Notes under the pieces: generated by a model
The model's input: the letters and a program-made list of their open reading frames with translations, nothing else
What the model was told of the DNA's origin: nothing
The model's database searches: none
Program-made: the position numbers and the translations under genes
Origin: Lachnospiraceae bacterium KM106-2
GTDB taxonomy: Bacteria > Bacillota > Clostridia > Lachnospirales > Lachnospiraceae
Assembly (NCBI GenBank): GCA_009731425.1
Contig: AP018794.1
Coordinates: 781,960 to 813,959 of the forward strand
Direction of reading: 5' to 3'
DNA: 32,000 nucleotides
In this document: positions 4,009 through 30,418 of the stretch, in pieces
Layout: the number at the start of each line of letters is the position of its first letter
Numbering within the stretch: the stretch's first letter is position 1

Positions 4009-4078
4009 TGGGATTGCATATAATAGGCTATATGCGTAAATGGAAATATATGTAATGAAAGTTAAAGGGGTTGAGTTT

Positions 4079-4369
4079 ATGGCAAAAAAAATTATTACGC
4101 TGATGAATATTGTTCACTTAGTAGAGAAGAAATGGGGAACACAAAAGATAGTAGAGGATAAAGAGGGTACCAAATATATTGTAGACAAAGAGGCATGTAA
4201 GGCAACTGAGGAGAAACCACATTGCATCATAAAAGAAGAGGAATTAAAGGATCCATATGGAGAAAATCCATATATGTATGTAGCAGAAGCTGTAAAAGGA
4301 AAATTAGTCATCGATGATCAGGTGGTGACAGAAAAGGAACTATATGGATTTATATATCAATTGGATTAA
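4079..4369 (+). CDS. small hypothetical protein (96 aa)
   Basis: ORF with an AAAGGGG RBS before the ATG at 4079, its own terminator downstream, and no recognisable motif. Confidence 0.45.
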   Translation: MAKKIITLMNIVHLVEKKWGTQKIVEDKEGTKYIVDKEACKATEEKPHCIIKEEELKDPYGENPYMYVAEAVKGKLVIDDQVVTEKELYGFIYQLD

Positions 4370-5580: not shown

Positions 5581-5699
5581 AATTTCCTCGTATTCTTGTA
5601 GATTTCTTTTGTGTGGGATAGTAAATAGCTATTTGTAACTATTCTTCTATATTGTTGAAATACTACCATAATTAAGAAAATAAAACAAGAAATATGTCG

Positions 5700-5741
5700 A
5701 AAAAGAAAAAGACGCAGATTAATTAGCGTCTTTTTCTTTTT
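5700..5741 (-). terminator. Rho-independent terminator of pyrBI
   Basis: AGAAAAAGACGC (5704-5715) pairs with GCGTCTTTTTCT (5726-5737). On the minus strand the stem is followed by a T-rich run. Confidence 0.65.
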
Positions 5742-5745
5742 AGAA

Positions 5746-6177
5746 TTATTTATGTTTACGATTAAATGCTTGCTCGCAATAGATACAGCGATAAATTCGC
5801 TTCTCAGGATTTGTCAATTTAAATGTATGAGGTAGTTCTTGTTCTACACTCGTGATACATCGTGGATTTTTACATTTAATGATATTCGTTACTTCAAGAG
5901 GTAGTTCTGGATTTTTCTTAAGGACGATCTTTCCATTTTCAATAATATTGATGGAAATGTTAGGATCTAATACTGCTAAAACATTGATGTCGCAGTTTAG
6001 AGAACCTTCAATCTTTATCATATCCTTTTTGCCCATCTTGCTGCTTTTAGCGTTTTTAATAATGGCAACCTGACATTCTGTCTTTTCTAAGTTTAAATAA
6101 TGATAGATATCCATTGCGCCTCCGGCTTGGATATGATCGATAACGATCCCTTTGTTTAAACCACTGATATTTAACAT
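5746..6177 (-). CDS. pyrI: aspartate carbamoyltransferase regulatory subunit
   Basis: 143 aa. C-terminal zinc domain CKNPRCIT...YRCIYCEQ. Overlaps the pyrB stop by 7 nt. Confidence 0.9.
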
Positions 6178-7091
6178 TCTTCCACCTCCAAAAGCTTCAT
6201 GATAAGAGCCATTCTGGCATAGACGCCGAATTTAGCTTGAGTAAAATATACGGCTCTTGGGTCATTATCTACTTCCGTTGCGATTTCGTTAACACGAGGA
6301 AGAGGATGCATTACGATCATATCATCTTTCGCATATTGCATCTTATCTGCATCTAAAATGAAGGAATCTTTTAATCGGATGTAATCTTCTTCATTGAAGA
6401 AACGTTCTTTTTGAACTCGTGTCATATATAAAATATCAAGTTCTGGCATTACTTCTTCTAATACATTTACTTCTTTAAATGGAATATTATGATCAGTGAG
6501 TACTTCTTCCCTTATGTAATTTGGGATTCTTAATTCATCAGGTGAGATCATGACGAATTTTATATTTGGATAACGCACCATTGCATTAATGAGAGAGTGA
6601 ACGGTTCGACCAAATTTTAGATCACCACATAATCCAATGGTTAAGTTGTCAAGTCGACCTTTTAAATTTTTAATTGTTAATAGATCAGTTAGGGTTTGAG
6701 TTGGATGATTGTGACCACCGTCACCGGCATTAATGACAGGAATTTTAGAATATTTTGCGGCAACTAATGGAGCACCCTCTTTTGGATGACGCATTGCGCA
6801 AATATCAGCATAACTAGAAATAACACGAATAGTATCGGCGACGCTTTCGCCTTTAGCAGCAGATGAAGAATCTGCAGAGGAGAAACCAAGAACACTACCA
6901 CCAAGATTCAACATGGCAGCTTCAAAACTTAATCTTGTTCGAGTACTCGGTTCGTAGAATAATGTAGCGATTTTTTTACCATGACATACATTAGAATATT
7001 TTTTCGGATCGGCTATAATGTCTTCCGCCAGTGTTAGGACCTCATCTAATTCTGTTGTTGTGAGATCTAAAGGACTTATTACGTGTTTCAT
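6171..7091 (-). CDS. pyrB: aspartate carbamoyltransferase catalytic subunit
   Basis: Motifs STRTR, HPTQ and HPLPR. AAGGAGG RBS lies directly upstream of the ATG at 7091 ([10 protein letters not shown]); the 25 extra residues of the track ORF lack an RBS. Confidence 0.9.
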
Positions 7092-9671: not shown

Positions 9672-9694
9672 TTATAACTAACTGAATAAATAAA

Positions 9695-9976
9695 GGCGTT
9701 GAAGAGAAGAGTAATTTTATTGTTGGTTTACAGAGAATCTGTAATAGGTGGAAGCAGATAGCTAAGATAGAGTGAAACAAGACTTGGAGCTGCATACGGA
9801 TCGCTTACTTATAAGCGTGATGCTATGACGTTAGTCCCCGTTACAGGACTAGAGTATGAACCCGTTAAGGAAGTACTTGATGAGGCTTTCATGGTGACGT
9901 GAAAGTGAAAAAGGGTGGTATCGCGATACATAGTCGCCCCTTGGAATAAATTAATATTTCAAGGGGCGTTTTTTTA
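9695..9976 (+). promoter_or_regulatory. T-box riboswitch leader (tRNA-sensing transcription attenuator) upstream of metG
   Basis: K-turn GGC-GUU-GA-AGAG (9695-9706) with CUUG-GA-GCU (9783-9791). AAGAGUA box at 9707-9713, AG bulge AGAGA at 9732-9736, distal loop GGUGGAA at 9747-9753. F-box CCGUUA at 9838-9843 and 9862-9867, T-box GGGTGGTATCGCG at 9913-9925. Terminator CGCCCCTTG (9935-9943) pairs with CAAGGGGCG (9960-9968), followed by T8. Confidence 0.85.
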
Positions 9977-10126: not shown

Positions 10127-12097
10127 ATGATATCAAAAAGATTAATGCCGGGAGAACGTCCTGTTTTTCCGAAAAAAGCAGTTGTAACAGCAGGAATGCC
10201 TTATGGCAATAAGAACCTACATTTTGGACATGTAGGCGGTATGTTTGTACATGCCGATATTTTTGCTAGATTTTTAAGAGATCGCATTGGAAAAGAAAAT
10301 GTTATCTTTGTATCTGGAACAGATTGTTACGGTTCTCCAATCTTAGAGAGCTATCGTAAGCTAAAAGAAGAAGGATACGAAGGAACACTTCAAGATTATG
10401 TAATGAAAAATCATAATAGTCAAAAAGATACACTTGATAAATATGAAATGAGCTTAAATTTATTTGGTGCATCTGCATTAGGCCGTACCGGTGAAATTCA
10501 TCAGCAAGTTTCTAATGAAGTATTTAATGATCTTTATGAACATGGATATATTAGAAAAGATTCTACACCACAATTTTATGATGATGAATTAGGAATTTAC
10601 TTAAATGGCCGTCAGGTTGTAGGTAAATGTCCGATCGCAGGATGTACTTCCGAACACGCATATGCCGATGAATGTTCATTAGGACATCAATATATGCCAA
10701 GCGAACTGATCAATCCAGTATCTGTATTATCAGGAAAGAAACCATCTTATCGTGACGTTACAAACTGGTATTTCGTATTAGATGAATGTATCGATGAGTT
10801 AAAAGAACAATTAGATTTCTTAAAGAGAAATACAAATACTCGTAAATACCAATTAAATATCATTGATGAATTCTTAAAGAAACCTTTAGTATATGTACCA
10901 AGAAAATATATTGAAGATTTAGCTGAATTAGAAGCTAAATTACCAGCTCATACAACAATTGATGAAGAGAAAAAGAAATCGATCACATTTGAATTCGAAT
11001 CATTAGAAGTCCGTGATGAAGCTAAGAGAGTATTAGATGAGTTAGGAATCCACTTTACAGCAGGTAAGACATTAGTACCGTTCCGTTTATCCGGTAATGT
11101 TGAATGGGGCGCAAAAGTACCTGATAAAGAAGATATGAAAGACTTAACATTCTGGGTTTGGCCAGAATCTTTATGGGCTCCAATTTCATTTACAAGAGCT
11201 TACTTAGAGTCAATCGGTCATGATCAAAAAGAATGGTCTGAATGGTGGAATGGAGAAGATTCTTTAGTATACCAATTCATCGGAGAAGATAATATCTATT
11301 TCTATTCGATCGCTGAAATGGGAATGTTCCTTTCTTTATCAAAAGGAGATATGCCAATTAGTCTTCCTCATATTGTTCCAAACCGTCATATCTTATTTAT
11401 GGATAAGAAGGCAAGCAGCAGTTCAGAAGTGAAACCACCAATGGCTGATGAGCTATTACAATACTATACTCCAGAACAATTAAGAATGCATTTCATGAGT
11501 CTTGGTTTATCTTCCAAGAGTACAGGATTTAAGCCACAGGTTTACATGAAAGAGGAAGAACGTGTTGGCGTTGATATGGTATTAAAAGATGGAAACCTTT
11601 TAACAAATGTATTCAACCGTTTGATCCGTTCTTGTTTCTATACTGCACAACAACATTATGATGGTAAGATTCCAACAGGAACTGTTAGTGAAAAGATCTT
11701 AAAATTAGCAGAAGAAAAAGTATTAGAATATGAGCGTCAGATGTATAATCAAGAGTTCCATCGAATCTCTTATGTATTAGATGAATATATTCGTGAAGTT
11801 AATAAATACTGGGCAAATCAAATCCGTGTTGCAGATAAAGAAGATAATGATGAATTAAGAAAACAAACATTACTCGATTGCTTCTATGCATGTAAGGTTA
11901 TGGCTGTTCTTGTTCATCCGATCGCTCCAAACGGATGTGAAATGTTCAGAGAATATTTAAATGTGGATGAGTCCATGTGGAACTGGGATCATATCTTTGA
12001 ACCAATTGAATTCTATACAGGTGATCTTTCTAAACATGAAATGAAATTCTTAGAACCAAGAGTGGACTTCTTCTCTAAATTAGAAAGTCAATATTAA
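10127..12097 (+). CDS. metG: methionine--tRNA ligase (MetRS1-like, 656 aa)
   Basis: PYGNKNLHFGH (HIGH region), SGTDCYGSPI, knuckle CPIAGC...ECSLGH, and YQFIGEDNIYFYS align with E. coli-type MetRS. A T-box leader lies upstream. GGAGG RBS precedes the start. Confidence 0.8.
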   Translation: MISKRLMPGERPVFPKKAVVTAGMPYGNKNLHFGHVGGMFVHADIFARFLRDRIGKENVIFVSGTDCYGSPILESYRKLKEEGYEGTLQDYVMKNHNSQKDTLDKYEMSLNLFGASALGRTGEIHQQVSNEVFNDLYEHGYIRKDSTPQFYDDELGIYLNGRQVVGKCPIAGCTSEHAYADECSLGHQYMPSELINPVSVLSGKKPSYRDVTNWYFVLDECIDELKEQLDFLKRNTNTRKYQLNIIDEFLKKPLVYVPRKYIEDLAELEAKLPAHTTIDEEKKKSITFEFESLEVRDEAKRVLDELGIHFTAGKTLVPFRLSGNVEWGAKVPDKEDMKDLTFWVWPESLWAPISFTRAYLESIGHDQKEWSEWWNGEDSLVYQFIGEDNIYFYSIAEMGMFLSLSKGDMPISLPHIVPNRHILFMDKKASSSSEVKPPMADELLQYYTPEQLRMHFMSLGLSSKSTGFKPQVYMKEEERVGVDMVLKDGNLLTNVFNRLIRSCFYTAQQHYDGKIPTGTVSEKILKLAEEKVLEYERQMYNQEFHRISYVLDEYIREVNKYWANQIRVADKEDNDELRKQTLLDCFYACKVMAVLVHPIAPNGCEMFREYLNVDESMWNWDHIFEPIEFYTGDLSKHEMKFLEPRVDFFSKLESQY

Positions 12098-12133: not shown

Positions 12134-12170
12134 AAAAAAAGCTCTCGCAAATAAGGCGAGAGTTTTTTTA
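12134..12170. terminator. bidirectional Rho-independent terminator shared by metG (+) and ferredoxin (-)
   Basis: A7-AGCTCTCGC (12140-12148), loop AAATAAG, GCGAGAGT (12156-12163), then T7. Confidence 0.8.
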
Positions 12171-12266
12171 TTTACGCGAAAAACTAGCCAAAGTGGTACT
12201 AGTATCACCTTGGTGGCTATCGTAAGATAACGAAAGAAACGCGTAAAGCGTATATCTTCTCGTTTA
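12171..12266 (+). repeat. interspersed structured repeat, copy A (diverged)
   Basis: TTTACGCGAAAAACTAGCCAAAG, then hairpin (GTGGTA/TATCAC), then CTTGGTGGCTATCGTAAGATAACGAAAGAAAC, then a second imperfect hairpin. Collinear with the copies at 17177 and 29471. Confidence 0.7.
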
Positions 12267-12279
12267 CATCCATGTGTAA

Positions 12280-12471
12280 TTATGCTGAAGTACTGATCGC
12301 ATCAACTGGACAGCCATCTGCAGCATCTTGTGCAGAAGCTTCTTGGTCGGATGGGACATCTCCTTCAATAGCGACTGCTTTTTCTGTATCGTCGAAGCTA
12401 TATACTTCTGGACAAGTGGAAACGCAAAGACCACAAGAAATACAAGTGTCTTGATCTACATGTGCTTTCAT
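12280..12471 (-). CDS. fdx: small 4Fe-4S ferredoxin (63 aa)
   Basis: CISCGLCVSTCP plus a distal CP (DGCPVDAI), acidic composition, AAAGGAG RBS. Confidence 0.85.
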   Translation of the reverse strand: MKAHVDQDTCISCGLCVSTCPEVYSFDDTEKAVAIEGDVPSDQEASAQDAADGCPVDAISTSA

Positions 12472-17172: not shown

Positions 17173-17273
17173 TTTATTTACGCGAATAACGAGCCAAAGT
17201 GATACTTGTATCAGCTTGGCGACTATCGCGATAACGAAAGAAACTTGCAAAGCGTGTTTCTTTTCGATTTTCG
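17173..17273 (+). repeat. interspersed structured repeat, copy B (single unit)
   Basis: TTTACGCGAATAACGAGCCAAAG (17177-17199), then hairpin 1 (TGAT/ATCA on a GCCAA/TTGGC base). Then CTTGGCGACTATCGCGATAAC (17215-17235), then hairpin 2 CGAAAGAAAC (17235-17244) with GTTTCTTTTCG (17256-17266). Confidence 0.8.
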
Positions 17274-17310: not shown

Positions 17311-18636
17311 ATGAACATTTTATTTGTATCCCTTGGATGTGACAAAAACCTTGTTGATAGTGAGGTAATGTTAGGTTTTATCCGTGAGAAAGGATATAAA
17401 ATTACGAATGATGAAGCAGAGGCAGACATCATTGTTGTAAATACATGCTGCTTTATCAATGATGCAAAGCAGGAGAGTATTGATACCATTTTAGAAATGG
17501 CTGAATATAAGAAAACTGGTAAATTGAAAGCTTTAGTTGTAACAGGCTGCCTTGCACAACGTTATAGTAAAGAAATTGCAGAAGAGATTCCAGAAGTTGA
17601 TGGAATTGTCGGAACGAGTTCTTATGAGACAATTACAGAAGTAATTGAACAAGCTTTAGAAGGTCATCATGTGGAAAAAATGGAAGATGTTGATTACCTT
17701 CCAAAGGATGAATCCGAACGTGTTATGACAACAGGCGGATATTATTCTTATTTAAAGATTGCTGAAGGGTGTGACAAGCACTGTACTTATTGTATTATCC
17801 CAAGTATTCGTGGTAAGTATAGAAGTCGTCAGATGGAAAGCTTGATCAAAGAAGCTACTTCTTTAGCAAAGAATGGTGTAAAAGAATTAATTCTTGTAGC
17901 ACAGGAAACAACACTCTATGGTGTTGATCTATATGGAGAGAAAAAACTCCCAGCTTTATTAAAAGAATTATGTAAAATCGATGGAATTGAATGGATTCGT
18001 TTATTATATTGCTATCCTGAAGAGATTACAGATGAATTAATTGAAGTAATGAAAGAAGAAGAAAAGGTTTGTCATTATTTAGATATGCCGATCCAACATG
18101 CGTCTGATCGTATTTTGAAACGTATGGGCAGAAGAACGGATCATGATGAATTAGTTGAAATCGTTACAAAATTAAAGAAAGAAATTCCGGATATCGCATT
18201 AAGAACAACCATAATTTCTGGATTCCCTGGTGAAACACAGGAAGATCACGAAGAAGTATTAGATTTTGTAGATGAAATGAATTTTGATCGTTTAGGTGTA
18301 TTTACTTATTCTCCAGAAGAAGGAACACCAGCTGCTAAGCTTCCAGAACAAATCGAAGAAGAAGTGAAGACACAGCGTCAAGGTGAGATCATGGCATTAC
18401 AACAAGAAATTTCATTAGAAAATTGCCGTAACATGATTGGGAAAGAGGTTAAAGTACTGATCGAAGGTAAAATTCCTGAAGATAATGTTTTTATCGGAAG
18501 AACTTACAAGGATGCTCCAAATGTTGATGGTTATTTCTTTGTGAAGTGTAATTACGAATTAATGTCAGGAGATTTCGTTACAGCAAAAGTTACAGAAGCA
18601 AAAGAATATGATTTAATCGGAGAGGTGATTGTATGA
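17311..18636 (+). CDS. rimO: ribosomal protein S12 methylthiotransferase (radical SAM MTTase with TRAM domain)
   Basis: MNILFVSLGCDKNLVDSE..., IVVNTCCF, radical-SAM CDKHCTYC, C-terminal TRAM domain. TAGGAG RBS before the ATG at 17311. The upstream part of the track ORF is translation of the repeat. Confidence 0.85.
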   Translation: MNILFVSLGCDKNLVDSEVMLGFIREKGYKITNDEAEADIIVVNTCCFINDAKQESIDTILEMAEYKKTGKLKALVVTGCLAQRYSKEIAEEIPEVDGIVGTSSYETITEVIEQALEGHHVEKMEDVDYLPKDESERVMTTGGYYSYLKIAEGCDKHCTYCIIPSIRGKYRSRQMESLIKEATSLAKNGVKELILVAQETTLYGVDLYGEKKLPALLKELCKIDGIEWIRLLYCYPEEITDELIEVMKEEEKVCHYLDMPIQHASDRILKRMGRRTDHDELVEIVTKLKKEIPDIALRTTIISGFPGETQEDHEEVLDFVDEMNFDRLGVFTYSPEEGTPAAKLPEQIEEEVKTQRQGEIMALQQEISLENCRNMIGKEVKVLIEGKIPEDNVFIGRTYKDAPNVDGYFFVKCNYELMSGDFVTAKVTEAKEYDLIGEVIV

Positions 18637-21218: not shown

Positions 21219-23201
21219 ATGAAAGTATCATTGAAGTTAAAGCTAACAGTGCTTATTATTGCTGCAGTCAGTGTTGTAGCAATTGCTGTTAGTGTTTTGT
21301 CATATAGAAAAACTAATGAAATTATACAAAATAAAGAAGAAGAACTAGTTTACGGAAAGATCGATCTAGTAAATGTGCAATTAGATGCATTAGTTACGAA
21401 GTCAGAAGAATTAGCTGATATTATTATTCAATCTAATAAGTTAAAAAGCAAAATGACTGCAAAGGAAGAAGAAGGATTATATGAATACTTCCAGACATTT
21501 GCAGATACTTATCCAGAGGTCGTTAACTTAATTTTTAGCCGCGAGGATAAAGTGTTTTTGTATCCAAGAAATCCAGATGTTGAAAATCAGGTCCCTGGTG
21601 AAGCAGAATGGTATTTGGAACGATTAGATGAAACGACAGAATCAAGTTGGAAGCCGCCTTATATTGATGCGGCATCTGGAACATGGATCATGACTTATTA
21701 TAAACGTGTTGTAGAAAACGATAAGATTGTAGGTTTTGTTGAAATCGATATCTCATTAGGACATATCGAAGAATTAGTTAAGACAATCGATTTAGGTAAA
21801 GGAAGTAATGTATTCATTACTGATCATGAAGCAGTTATCAACTTAGCATCAGTAGGAAATCTGATCAACAAAGATATCCCGGATGAAAAGTTGCGAGCAG
21901 CAGTTGAGAAGAATGATAAAGGCTCACTTATTTATAAAAGTACGAAAGAAGATAAGTTTGCAGTTTATAAGACAATTGAAGGAAAGATCAACTGGAAAGT
22001 AGTCGGTGTTATTCCTAAAGCAAATATTGTTAAAGATAGCAATGACTTATTAATATACATTATGATCAGTTGTATCGGAATTGCAATTGCAAGTGCCTTC
22101 GTAGTTGTACTAGTTGTGAGTCGTATTGTTAAGAATATCAAATCACTTGGGGAAAAATTAAATGCTCTTGGTGAAGGCGACTTAACTGCAACAGCAGAAA
22201 TTAAAACAACGGATGAAGTTGGACAAATGGGTACGGTATTTAATACGGCTGTAGAACATATCCGTGGATTGATTCAGACATCCCAAACGACCATCAATAA
22301 TTATTTAGAAGAATGTAATCATATTTTGGAGGTTTCAGGCGAGAGCACAGAAACAACCAACCATATTGCAGAATCAATTCAAAATATTGCGGATGATTCT
22401 TATGAACAAGCAGAAGAAACAAAGACAATTGTAAAACATTTCGAAGAGTTATCGAATGCAATGGATACGATCACATCTTCCATTGATCATGTTAACGATA
22501 CGGTTAATAAGACACAAGAAACAAATCAAAAGGGTATTGAAGTAATTGGTCAATTGTTAAAAGCGACCGATATGACTAATGATTCTACAGATGTGGTAAG
22601 AAAAACGATCGAACAGATTAATCAGACATCTTATGAAATTGATGCCATTGTTGGTGCGATCAACGATATTGCATCTCAAACTAACTTACTTGCATTAAAT
22701 GCTAGTATCGAAGCAGCAAGAGCGGGTGAGAATGGAAAAGGTTTTGCAGTTGTAGCGGAAGAGGTAAGAGTTCTTGCAGAGTCTTCAGCAAACTCAGCAG
22801 GTGAGATCAGAACATTGATCGAACGTGTAAAATCACAAGCAAATGAAGCTGTTGTAGAAATGGAAACAGTTAAAAATAATACTCATTTACAATCAGAAGC
22901 AGTTAAGAATACAAGAGTATCTTTCGACACTCTTCATGATGCTGTATCTGAATTAAATAATGAAGTAAATAGTATCGGAGAATTAAATCAAGATATGATC
23001 GAAGTACGTCATGTGGTAGAACATATCATTGACAACTTTGCAGAAAAAGCAAAGAATAATTCTGATGCGACACAAACAATCTCAGCGATGACAGAAGAGC
23101 AGCTTGCTACTTTGATCAGTGTAGATGAAAGTATCCAGACATTAGCAAATTCAGCAGCTGATCTAGAAAAAGAAATTAATAAATTTAAGACACAAGAATA
23201 A
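21219..23201 (+). CDS. methyl-accepting chemotaxis protein (Cache-type sensor, HAMP, MA domain)
   Basis: N-terminal TM helix, periplasmic sensor, second TM helix, HAMP ([18 protein letters not shown]). Highly conserved signalling hairpin [34 protein letters not shown]. Confidence 0.9.
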
Positions 23202-23211
23202 TGATTCGATA

Positions 23212-23246
23212 AAGAGAAACACGGTAATCGTGTTTCTCTTTTTTTG
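23212..23246 (+). terminator. Rho-independent terminator after the MCP gene
   Basis: AAGAGAAACACG (23212-23223) pairs with CGTGTTTCTCTT (23229-23240), then a T-run. Confidence 0.85.
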
Positions 23247-23363
23247 TGCCTTGAAAAGGTGCGAATATTGGAAATTTGACAAAAATACTTTAAAATTATA
23301 CCTTTTTGTTATATACTATCAAAAGGATATATTTTAGAAAGTAAATTGAAAGGTTAACGATAT

Positions 23364-29201: not shown

Positions 29202-29432
29202 ATGGAATTTGAAAAGATAAAAAAGATTATTAGCGAAGTATTAAGTATTAATGAGGAAGATATCACATTAGCGACAACATTCGTTGATGATTTAGGTGCT
29301 GATTCACTTGATGTATTCCAGATCATCATGGGTATTGAAGAAGAATTCGATATTGAGATCGCAAATGAAGATGCTGAAAAGATCGTAACAGTAGAAGATG
29401 CTGTTGAACAAATAAAGAACGCATTAAACTAA
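29202..29432 (+). CDS. acpP: acyl carrier protein
   Basis: 76 aa, with the phosphopantetheine attachment motif DLGADSLD. Confidence 0.9.
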   Translation: MEFEKIKKIISEVLSINEEDITLATTFVDDLGADSLDVFQIIMGIEEEFDIEIANEDAEKIVTVEDAVEQIKNALN

Positions 29433-29436
29433 GCGT

Positions 29437-29470
29437 AAAAAGCTGTCCTGAGTTTGCGGGCAGCTTTTTA
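29437..29470 (+). terminator. Rho-independent terminator after acpP
   Basis: AAAAAGCTGTCC (29437-29448) pairs with GGGCAGCTTTTT (29458-29469, one G-U pair). Confidence 0.75.
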
Positions 29471-29699
29471 TTTACGCGAGCAACGAGCCAAAGTCATACA
29501 GGCATGAATTTGGCGACTGTCACGATAGCCAGAAGAAGCACGGGTACCGTGGTTATTCTGGCTGGAGTGACAATGAGCCAAGGAAATGTATTTTATGACC
29601 TTGGCGACTGCCGTGATAGCCAGAAGAAGCACGTGAATCGTGGTGCTTCTGGTGGACGCGAGCAACGAGCCAAAGTCATACAGACAGGCAACGAGCCAG
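29471..29699 (+). repeat. tandem array (about 2.5 units, period 90-92 nt) of the interspersed structured repeat
   Basis: Perfect 28-nt direct repeat ACGCGAGCAACGAGCCAAAGTCATACAG at 29474-29501 and 29656-29683. TTGGCGACTG at 29510 and 29601. GATAGCCAGAAGAAGCACG at 29524-29542 and 29615-29633. Each unit carries two hairpins. Confidence 0.9.
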
Positions 29700-29716
29700 C
29701 CTTAAGGAGGAAGATC

Positions 29717-30418
29717 ATGAATCATAAAGATTCTGTTATTGAATTTGAGGAACACATTAACTATACTTTTCAAAATAAGGAATTTTTGAAAACAGCTTTA
29801 TCGCATAGTTCTTATGCAAATGAGAAAAGATTTGATAAGATTGCAAACAACGAAAGAACCGAGTTTCTTGGAGATGCTGTATTAGAGTTAGTATCTAGTG
29901 AGTTTATCTTTAAACAATACAGCAACAAAAACGAAGGTGAAATGACGAGATTACGTGCTAGTCTCGTATGCGAGCCAACACTAGCCTATTGTGCACGAGA
30001 AATCAATTTAGGAGATTACATTTTACTTGGTAAAGGGGAAGATGCTACCGGTGGAAGAGACCGTGATAGTATTCTATCAGATGCCCTAGAAGCTGTAATC
30101 GGTGCGATTTTTCTTGACGGTGGTTTTACTAATGCAAAAGAGTTCATTTTAAAATATGTATTAAATGATATCGAACACAAACAGCTCTTTTATGATAGCA
30201 AGACTATCTTACAGGAAATTGTTCAAAGTGAAAGTAAATTACCTCTTACTTATGAACTACTTTCAGAAGAGGGACCAGATCATAATAAGAAATTTACCAT
30301 TGCAGCAAAGCTTGGGGAAGAAGAGCTTGCAGTGGGCAGTGGCCGTACAAAGAAAGCAGCAGAGCAATCTGCAGCTTATCAGTCTATTATTAAATTAAGA
30401 AAAACAGGGAGGGCATAA
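29717..30418 (+). CDS. rnc: ribonuclease III
   Basis: MNHKDSVIEFEEHINYTF..., signature ERTEFLGDAVLE, C-terminal dsRBD (GPDHNKKFTI...GRTKKAAEQSAA). AAGGAGG RBS at 29704-29710. The 71 codons upstream in the track ORF are repeat sequence. Confidence 0.9.
   Translation: MNHKDSVIEFEEHINYTFQNKEFLKTALSHSSYANEKRFDKIANNERTEFLGDAVLELVSSEFIFKQYSNKNEGEMTRLRASLVCEPTLAYCAREINLGDYILLGKGEDATGGRDRDSILSDALEAVIGAIFLDGGFTNAKEFILKYVLNDIEHKQLFYDSKTILQEIVQSESKLPLTYELLSEEGPDHNKKFTIAAKLGEEELAVGSGRTKKAAEQSAAYQSIIKLRKTGRA

Follow-up and report, generated by a model that had tools for sequence, protein, structure and literature searches.

A structured tandem array between acpP and rnc of Lachnospiraceae bacterium KM106-2, probably a cluster of a dispersed non-coding repeat

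Does the strongly folding leader of the ribonuclease III gene rnc in Lachnospiraceae bacterium KM106-2 belong to rnc, or did it arrive from elsewhere? The stretch analysed here, referred to as the window, comprises 32,000 nucleotides of contig AP018794.1 (positions 781,960 to 813,959), and at 29474-29699, between acpP and rnc, it holds a set of tandem repeats for which an earlier note had offered two explanations: an autoregulatory or processing module of rnc, or a mobile structured element caught mid-expansion. The comparison presented below makes it likely that the region is a head-to-tail cluster of a non-coding, non-autonomous repeat of ~92 nt belonging to a family dispersed in the Lachnospiraceae, and not a control element of rnc. 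The Lachnospiraceae are dominant commensals of the human gut and, to our knowledge and based on a limited search of the literature, their small non-coding repeats have not been catalogued.

The acpP-rnc spacer and its array

The genes plsX, acpP and rnc were each identified by a match to the corresponding NCBIfam model, with the rnc product matching the ribonuclease III model TIGR02191 at 254 bits. The acpP-rnc spacer is 284 nt long (29433-29716). For comparison, 80 metagenomic loci encoding an RNase III of 63–69% identity were used, 74 of which keep acpP directly upstream. Look-ups of exact protein matches to the 233-aa RNase III, to its 304-aa extended ORF and to ACP gave no record, and the best metagenomic relatives of the RNase III reach 69% identity. 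The spacers of these 74 relatives measure 17–169 nt, as opposed to 284 nt in the window; none of them holds the element, and the covariance model described below gave no match over 398 kb of the relatives' loci. In nearly all distinct spacers that were inspected, a terminator-like hairpin and its T-run are followed only by a short stretch and the ribosome-binding site (RBS). When the array is subtracted from the window spacer, 58 nt remain (284 - 226), the same as in locus L142. The short, element-free spacers of the relatives together with this 58-nt remainder show the array to be an insertion specific to this lineage, located where copies usually lie, here the T-run of acpP's terminator, and the ATTT in which that T-run ends is the insertion junction. 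The cluster accordingly landed behind the acpP terminator, within a former spacer of ~58 nt made up of terminator and RBS, before rnc. The features of the spacer are:

29436..29473 (+), acpP intrinsic terminator: stem 29436-29448 / 29458-29470 and a T-run, ending in ATTT; inverted repeat with 13-nt arms, 92% complementary
29474..29563 (+), unit 1, complete: head ACGCGAGCAACGAGCC, then hairpin 1 with its GCCAA/TTGGC base, the linker GATAGC and hairpin 2; 72.3 bits (E = 1.7e-15) with covariance model R1, across model positions 1-92; nhmmer E = 1.8e-16
29565..29654 (+), unit 2, full length: degenerate head GAGTGA-CAATGAGCCAAGG, diverged hairpin 1; R1 32.1 bits, E = 7e-6
29656..29683 (+), partial unit 3: head and 5' arm of hairpin 1, 28/28 identical to the start of unit 1
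29688..29699 (+), extra head fragment: GCAACGAGCCAG, one mismatch to GCAACGAGCCAA
29704-29710 (+), rnc RBS AAGGAGG, with the ATG at 29717-29719; no room for a promoter between array and gene

The array (29474-29699, 226 nt) is thus built head-to-tail from two 91-nt units, a 28-nt restart of unit 1 and a 12-nt fragment, or 2.3 units and a fragment. All tandem repeats claimed in the earlier note were recovered: 29504-29561 and 29595-29652 share 83% identity at an offset of 91 nt, 29463-29504 and 29645-29686 share 86% identity at an offset of 182 nt, the latter pair containing an exact 28-nt match (29474-29501 = 29656-29683), and GCAACGAGCCA occurs four times, at 29480, 29570 (two mismatches), 29662 and 29688. 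In the nhmmer search, partial unit 3 was matched at 29656-29677 (model positions 1-22). The hairpins described in that note are real as well, with an inverted repeat of 26-nt arms (29518-29543 / 29547-29572, 81% complementary) and a second one of 14-nt arms (29620-29633 / 29639-29652). Folded as 288 nt, the spacer reached -119.6 kcal/mol, compared to -82 ± 4.8 for shuffled sequences (z = -7.9), and its minus strand folds nearly as strongly (z = -6.8). A weak promoter-like site, GTGACA-16-TATTTT, was found by promoter scan within unit 2 (29567-29594, 9/12 positions matched).

The array is open in the frame of rnc, which gives a spurious 304-aa open reading frame (ORF; window 29504-30418) with an N-terminal extension of 71 residues, and in an Oliverpabstia locus (L001) a long ORF likewise passes through copies of the repeat. 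For genome annotation, this means that the unit yields false N-terminal extensions, as in the 304-aa 'RNase III' here and probably in the long ORF of L001, and that gene callers may misannotate start codons beside the repeat. Copies of the repeat can also pass for gene-specific leaders, as in the case of rnc.

The repeat unit and its distribution

The consensus unit of ~92 nt, ACGCGAGCAACGAGCCAAAGTCCGTGCTTGCACGAGACCTTGGCGACTGCCGCGATAACTTGAGAAACTCGCGGAGCGTGTTTCTCATAGTT, is often identical across genera. It begins with a T-free head, ACGCGAGCAACGAGCC, from which the outer helix P1 (CGCG.GCA with TGC.CGCG) encloses hairpin 1 on its GCCAA/TTGGC base; an unpaired linker, GATAAC, which is invariant or nearly so, then separates P1 and hairpin 1 from hairpin 2, a stem of 16 bp ending in ...GTT. 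The fold was derived by eye and with RNAalifold from an alignment of 30 non-redundant units, and the covariance model R1 was built from the family. In this alignment 92.8% of the cells were paired, compared to 33–43% when the partners were slid, and changes on both sides were found in 16 of the 35 pairs. P1 was paired in 97% of its cells and showed G:C to A:U covariation in 11 of the 30 sequences. The covariation score was 0.228, as opposed to 0.113 ± 0.007 in shuffles and 0.04–0.09 with slid partners, and none of 500 shuffles reached the observed percentage paired, the number of both-side changes or the covariation score. As the copies are mutually related, the covariation shows that pairing has been kept, not whether it is RNA or single-stranded DNA that folds.

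The earlier note had also described an interlocking helix, in which TGTCAC (29518-29523) pairs with GTGACA (29567-29572) at the start of the next unit. Such a helix is present here, and the mutated head of unit 2 (GTGACA) fits 29518-29523, the 3' strand of P1, perfectly, but the family-wide partner of this strand is the unit's own 5' head. Pairing with the next unit is explained by the tandem arrangement as such, as any tandem copy automatically supplies the next head as an alternative partner. Other possible roles of the unit were considered and set aside. One of its reading frames is open, but this frame has no start codon, which speaks against a small encoded peptide; a CsrA-type GGA loop was rejected as the loop of hairpin 2 varies (GGA, GAA, AAA, AGA); and no internal promoter was seen by eye in the consensus.

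A pattern scan with ACGCGANNAACNAGCCAAAGT, using one genome per species, returned at least 120 loci, and five of the loci listed were chance matches in proteobacterial coding sequence. The unit is thereby found at no fewer than 115 loci, in Lachnospiraceae and a few other gut Clostridia, beside unrelated genes. Among the matches listed, the carriers belong to Blautia, Dorea, Coprococcus, Oliverpabstia, Mediterraneibacter ([Ruminococcus] faecis), Lachnospira, Agathobacter, Anaerosporobacter, Waltera, Pilosibacter, Marvinbryantia and Laedolimicola. Coprococcus catus, Anaerosporobacter faecicola, Blautia ammoniilytica and [Ruminococcus] faecis JCM 15917 are examples of carriers in culture. Within KM106-2 the unit lies not only at rnc but also at metG and rimO, and together with its spread across Lachnospiraceae genera this largely bears out the earlier idea of a mobile structured element caught mid-expansion. 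The search for the unit in plasmids gave no match, while copies were found in ten unannotated human-faecal 'Bacteriophage sp.' contigs (including MT835784.1 and MT835472.1, the latter at 77928-78019 with 100% identity) and in four IMG/VR viral contigs (L201-L204); with no plasmid match and few phage or viral contigs, the element is mainly chromosomal. The flanks of the copy in L001, located on an Oliverpabstia chromosome, match those in L201 at ~99%, and L201 may therefore be a misclassified chromosomal fragment.

No named RNA family had been recognised in the earlier note, and Rfam 15 likewise gave no match to the element. At the gathering threshold, the only match in the whole window was a T-box at 9690-9944; within 29380-29780 the best match at E ≤ 10 reached 23.5 bits against a gathering score of 141, and canonical copies from 15 loci and from L035:3000-3300 gave no relevant match. 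A limited literature search, on the sequence string, on MITE, REP or RAYT elements of Lachnospiraceae and on terminator-targeting repeats, returned no description of the element. The family is apparently undescribed, although the class itself, that of REP-, BOX- or PATE-like repeats, is familiar.

In four Coprococcus loci (L056, minus strand, ~6689-6825; L111, minus strand, ~4017-4157; L102 and L103) units are split by an insert of ~50 nt, TTGCTAAGCGCCAGTGGCGCTT(GTT)TAGCAACGACCGAAACGGAGTGTAGAGG, located between GGCG and the 3' strand of P1. This insert looks like a second small palindromic element nested in the first one, and modules related to it, GAGCGCCAGCGAGTGT, were seen in L001 and in a Blautia locus (L089).

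Junctions, mobility and competing explanations

The loci were gathered through the head pattern and fetched as 8-kb blocks around the copies, with simple ORF heuristics as gene calls for orientation. Upstream of ACGCGA, the flank is T-rich at positions -10 to -5 (48–86% T), carries an A at -4 (71%) and TTT at -3 to -1 (92–97%), and at the 3' end of the element ...GTT is followed by T (67%) and then by random sequence. A terminator-like hairpin with a T-run was found just upstream of 83 of 121 copies (69%), compared to 20 of 2420 random positions (0.8%) in the same loci. Copies without a terminator still have ATTT, such as TATAATTT directly followed by ACGCGA in L078 and L096. The dip in conservation at -5 suggests that ATTT represents the first four bases of the element, whereas tandem junctions lacking ATTT (GTT-T-ACGCGA in L105) suggest that it is the target. 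Among the loci listed, the upstream gene was co-oriented in 91 of 120 cases, with a median gap of 86 nt by this crude ORF call. In loci with several hits (ten fetched, and the window) all hits lay on one strand; in four of the ten the hits represent head restarts or split units instead of independent copies. The Shine-Dalgarno sequence and start codon of a co-oriented, unrelated ORF were found within 40 nt of 10 out of 94 full copies, and within 100 nt of 24 out of 94.

The ends of the element, ACGCGAGC... and ...CATAGTT, are not complementary, and terminal inverted repeats are thus absent. Flanking direct repeats of 3 nt were seen in four of 69 copies, and of 4 nt and 5 nt in one copy each, which does not amount to a target-site duplication. 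When all ORFs from 100 aa upwards in the 120 listed loci were clustered, no ORF family recurred beside copies or truncated copies; recurrence was limited to common paralogue families, ABC ATPases and MATE pumps among them. The element therefore appears to be non-autonomous, and a dispersed repeat of this kind with a preference for T-runs or terminators as targets is the reading that we consider probable. An enzyme acting in trans would then recognise the hairpins of the element and a T-rich, single-stranded target. The best guess for such an enzyme would be a Y1/HUH transposase of the IS200/IS605 or RAYT type, as the lack of inverted repeats, the lack of duplication and the conserved short 5' target in one orientation are three features resembling this group; mobilisation in trans by a hairpin-recognising enzyme, possibly of the HUH type, is nonetheless put forward only as a tentative suggestion. 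A unit found in one orientation precisely behind terminator T-runs would make a clean system for studying terminator recognition and the mobilising enzyme.

Several known systems resemble the element in part. The REP/BIME repeats of Enterobacteria and Pseudomonas, associated with RAYT, are likewise short, extragenic and hairpin-forming, with tens or more copies per genome, mostly located at gene 3' ends, often clustered, without terminal inverted repeats or target duplication and with a consensus conserved between genera, and their transcripts can affect mRNA ends. The unit studied here is comparably extragenic, placed mostly at gene 3' ends and present in many copies (at least 115 loci, and three sites within 32 kb). 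REP, however, is a palindrome of 20–40 nt with a GTAG head, commonly arranged in inverted pairs, whereas the present unit has ~92 nt and three helices and forms head-to-tail clusters on one strand; furthermore, no flanked RAYT gene was found in the 8-kb blocks, the host family is a Firmicute one, and the T-run of the terminator marks the exact junction. BOX elements of Streptococcus pneumoniae (boxA-boxB(n)-boxC) are also modular, non-coding, strongly folding intergenic repeats of a Firmicute with variable internal modules, no known transposase and frequent co-transcription with neighbours, but share no sequence similarity with the unit and follow another module plan. No link of BOX elements to terminator T-runs, or to a single orientation, is known to us.

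Like the present element, the PATEs of IS200/IS605 have neither terminal inverted repeats nor target duplication, carry hairpins near both ends and insert with a fixed orientation on the 3' side of a short, conserved target sequence, which here is (A)TTT. They differ in that the left and right hairpins of the unit are unrelated and its right end lies within a stem, in the 3' arm of hairpin 2, in that no tnpA/tnpB partner was seen near copies, and in that there is no replication-strand bias beyond the gene-strand bias. A classical, DDE-derived miniature inverted-repeat transposable element (MITE) differs from the element, which has no terminal inverted repeats or target-site duplication. Class C group II introns home, in one orientation, to sites just downstream of intrinsic terminator stem-loops. 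Placement behind terminators is the only feature they share with the unit, and an intron remnant was rejected given a length of ~92 nt as opposed to >600 nt, no GUGYG 5' end, no domain V and no Rfam intron match.

Several observations weigh against a dispersed mobile repeat, or limit what can be said for it. The cognate enzyme was not identified in the 8-kb blocks around copies. An all-against-all search of the flanks of the fetched loci gave only filled orthologous pairs and no empty/filled pair, so that mobility is deduced from the distribution. With respect to IS608, the fit is poor: hairpins 1 and 2 do not resemble each other, and the element has its right end within the hairpin 2 stem and not 3' of it. 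The sense strand was the G-rich strand in 84 of 107 loci (GC skew), but a gene-strand bias of about this level is generally reported for Firmicutes, and the orientation bias by GC skew consequently adds no information. Because loci were gathered by the head pattern, ascertainment accounts for both the conserved head and the surplus of 3'-truncated copies. The near-identical units across genera could reflect purifying selection on a function. Folding energies and mismatch counts did not tell the two strands apart, with equally good folding of the sense and antisense unit (-38.3 and -40.0 kcal/mol, respectively) and 44 G.T versus 28 A.C cells.

The explanation first suggested by the locus is that the array is an RNase III autoregulatory leader, in which cleavage of duplexes in its own 5' untranslated region (UTR) lowers the stability of rnc mRNA. 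Regulation of this type is established in E. coli, where rnc is autoregulated by leader cleavage, and the two leaders share a long imperfect duplex in the rnc 5' UTR; the E. coli structure is a single-copy operon leader, however, whereas the array is a copy of a dispersed repeat and absent from the rnc leaders of 74 relatives. With only 17 nt left between the array and the rnc ATG, any rnc transcript must include the 3' part of the array at the least, and the array is thus at least partly contained in the mRNA. Transcription could start by read-through of the acpP terminator or at the weak promoter-like site in unit 2 (29567-29594), and the spacers of most relatives appear to leave little space for a separate promoter beyond the acpP hairpin, a sign of read-through into rnc. 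The rnc mRNA would then carry in its 5' UTR long imperfect duplexes of the kind cut by RNase III, including the one with 26-nt arms at 29518-29572 within the strongly folding spacer (z = -7.9), and cleavage of the array could plausibly occur. Against this stand the lack of the element in all 74 related acpP-rnc spacers, which leaves the leader without conservation, its presence beside metG and rimO in the window and beside unrelated genes in ~115 other loci, and the lack of anything specific to rnc in the unit. The earlier proposal of an rnc module as the reason for the sequence is not supported, given these relatives and the recurrence of RBS-adjacent placement before unrelated genes. We consider an autoregulatory leader very improbable, and it is no more probable that the duplexes matter for rnc; the position within the 5' UTR looks like a by-product of insertion and not the reason for the sequence. 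An equally improbable combination of the two ideas is a mobile, terminator-homing element whose transcribed copies act as portable double-stranded RNA modules for processing or stability, a tandem set of which has put the rnc mRNA under RNase III control. If true, an autoregulatory loop would have been created by insertion of a repeat. For RNase III biology, the locus is only a lead, in that one lineage now has an rnc 5' UTR formed by an inserted repeat.

A wider role in cis is unlikely, if less so than control of rnc alone. The family would be kept mainly for what its transcript does at many genes, as reported for REP and BOX, with transposition being secondary; mRNA-end protection, insulation against read-through and a processing site behind leaky terminators are candidate roles. 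Sequence that is near-identical between genera, pairing kept through double changes, the nearly or fully invariant unpaired GATAAC, and the consistent orientation sense to the upstream gene argue for it, as do the 10–25% of copies which lie between a terminator and a close co-oriented gene and so must be transcribed. On the other hand, most copies lie just beyond the end point of terminated transcripts, the antisense strand pairs equally well, which makes the covariation as compatible with DNA hairpins as with RNA, the zero matches in 398 kb of related Lachnospiraceae argue against an essential role, and choice of target is the easier explanation for so precise a junction at the T-run. A further explanation concerns the array alone: a single inserted copy may have been multiplied locally, through tandem duplication or slippage, and the array would in that case say nothing about ongoing mobility. 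We regard this as possible, somewhat short of an even prospect. The period of exactly 91 nt favours it, as do partial unit 3, identical to the unit-1 head in 28/28 positions while unit 2 differs by 17%, the additional 12-nt head fragment behind it, and the rarity of restarts, which follow just two of 94 full copies besides the window array. But as unit 2 is far more diverged than partial unit 3, a simple recent duplication cannot explain all three, and tandem sets occur in other genomes too (L089). Local duplication covers only the formation of the array and is compatible with a dispersed repeat.

With the dispersed repeat as the preferred reading, tandem copies would arise when the right end GTT(T) recreates the target, by copying of greater than unit length, or by local duplication. 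In L105 and L027, full units are followed by restarts of 23 and 26 nt, respectively, that are identical to the unit's own head. The 28-nt restart in the window repeats the head of unit 1 and not that of unit 2. Restarts are rare, being seen behind two of the 94 full copies from the fetched loci and in the window array. These restarts hint at copying of greater than unit length or at local duplication. A tandem triple was observed in L089, a Blautia metagenome-assembled genome (522-780, minus strand; model positions 1-62, 1-92 and 5-91), and arrays like the one before rnc thus occur elsewhere.

Other copies and neighbouring features in the window

The earlier note had counted five units in the window, and this count was correct, the remaining two being found at 12174-12264 (61 bits) and 17180-17268 (88 bits). 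A repeat search of the whole window also returned unit sequence near 12170 and 17176, and an unfiltered R1 search of the whole window returned four units at three sites, all on the plus strand. The two copies outside the acpP-rnc spacer are:

12174..12264 (+), solitary copy directly behind the metG terminator and its T-run; R1 60.6 bits, E = 1.1e-12
17180..17268 (+), solitary copy in the rimO leader; R1 88.1 bits, E = 2.9e-19; rimO ATG at 17311

The first copy lies between metG (10127-12097) and a small convergent ORF (12280-12471, minus strand), which is ferredoxin-like by its cysteine pattern as judged by eye and gave no match in NCBIfam. The T-box leader at 9690-9944 (Rfam RF00230, 107.6 bits) precedes metG. 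The second copy starts ~24 nt after a promoter-like site found by promoter scan, TATACA-17-TATAAT, and the rimO product was identified by TIGR01125 (543 bits).

On the plus strand of the window (1-32000) the GC skew is +0.173, and 22 of the window's 27 ORFs with 100 aa or more are encoded there, for which reason it is probably the leading strand; all repeat copies in the window share this orientation. A terminator after the stop codon of ORF 21219-23201 (window 23203-23247), CGATAAAGAGAAACACGGTAATCGTGTTTCTCTTTTTTT, resembles the linker and hairpin 2 of the unit (R1 26.5 bits, E = 1.5e-4), a likeness that may be fortuitous, may mark a 3' module on its own or may point to a terminator as the origin of hairpin 2. 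A large, near-perfect palindrome at 5690-5751 (31-nt arms, 84% complementary, no spacer), located between two minus-strand ORFs, is probably a terminator.

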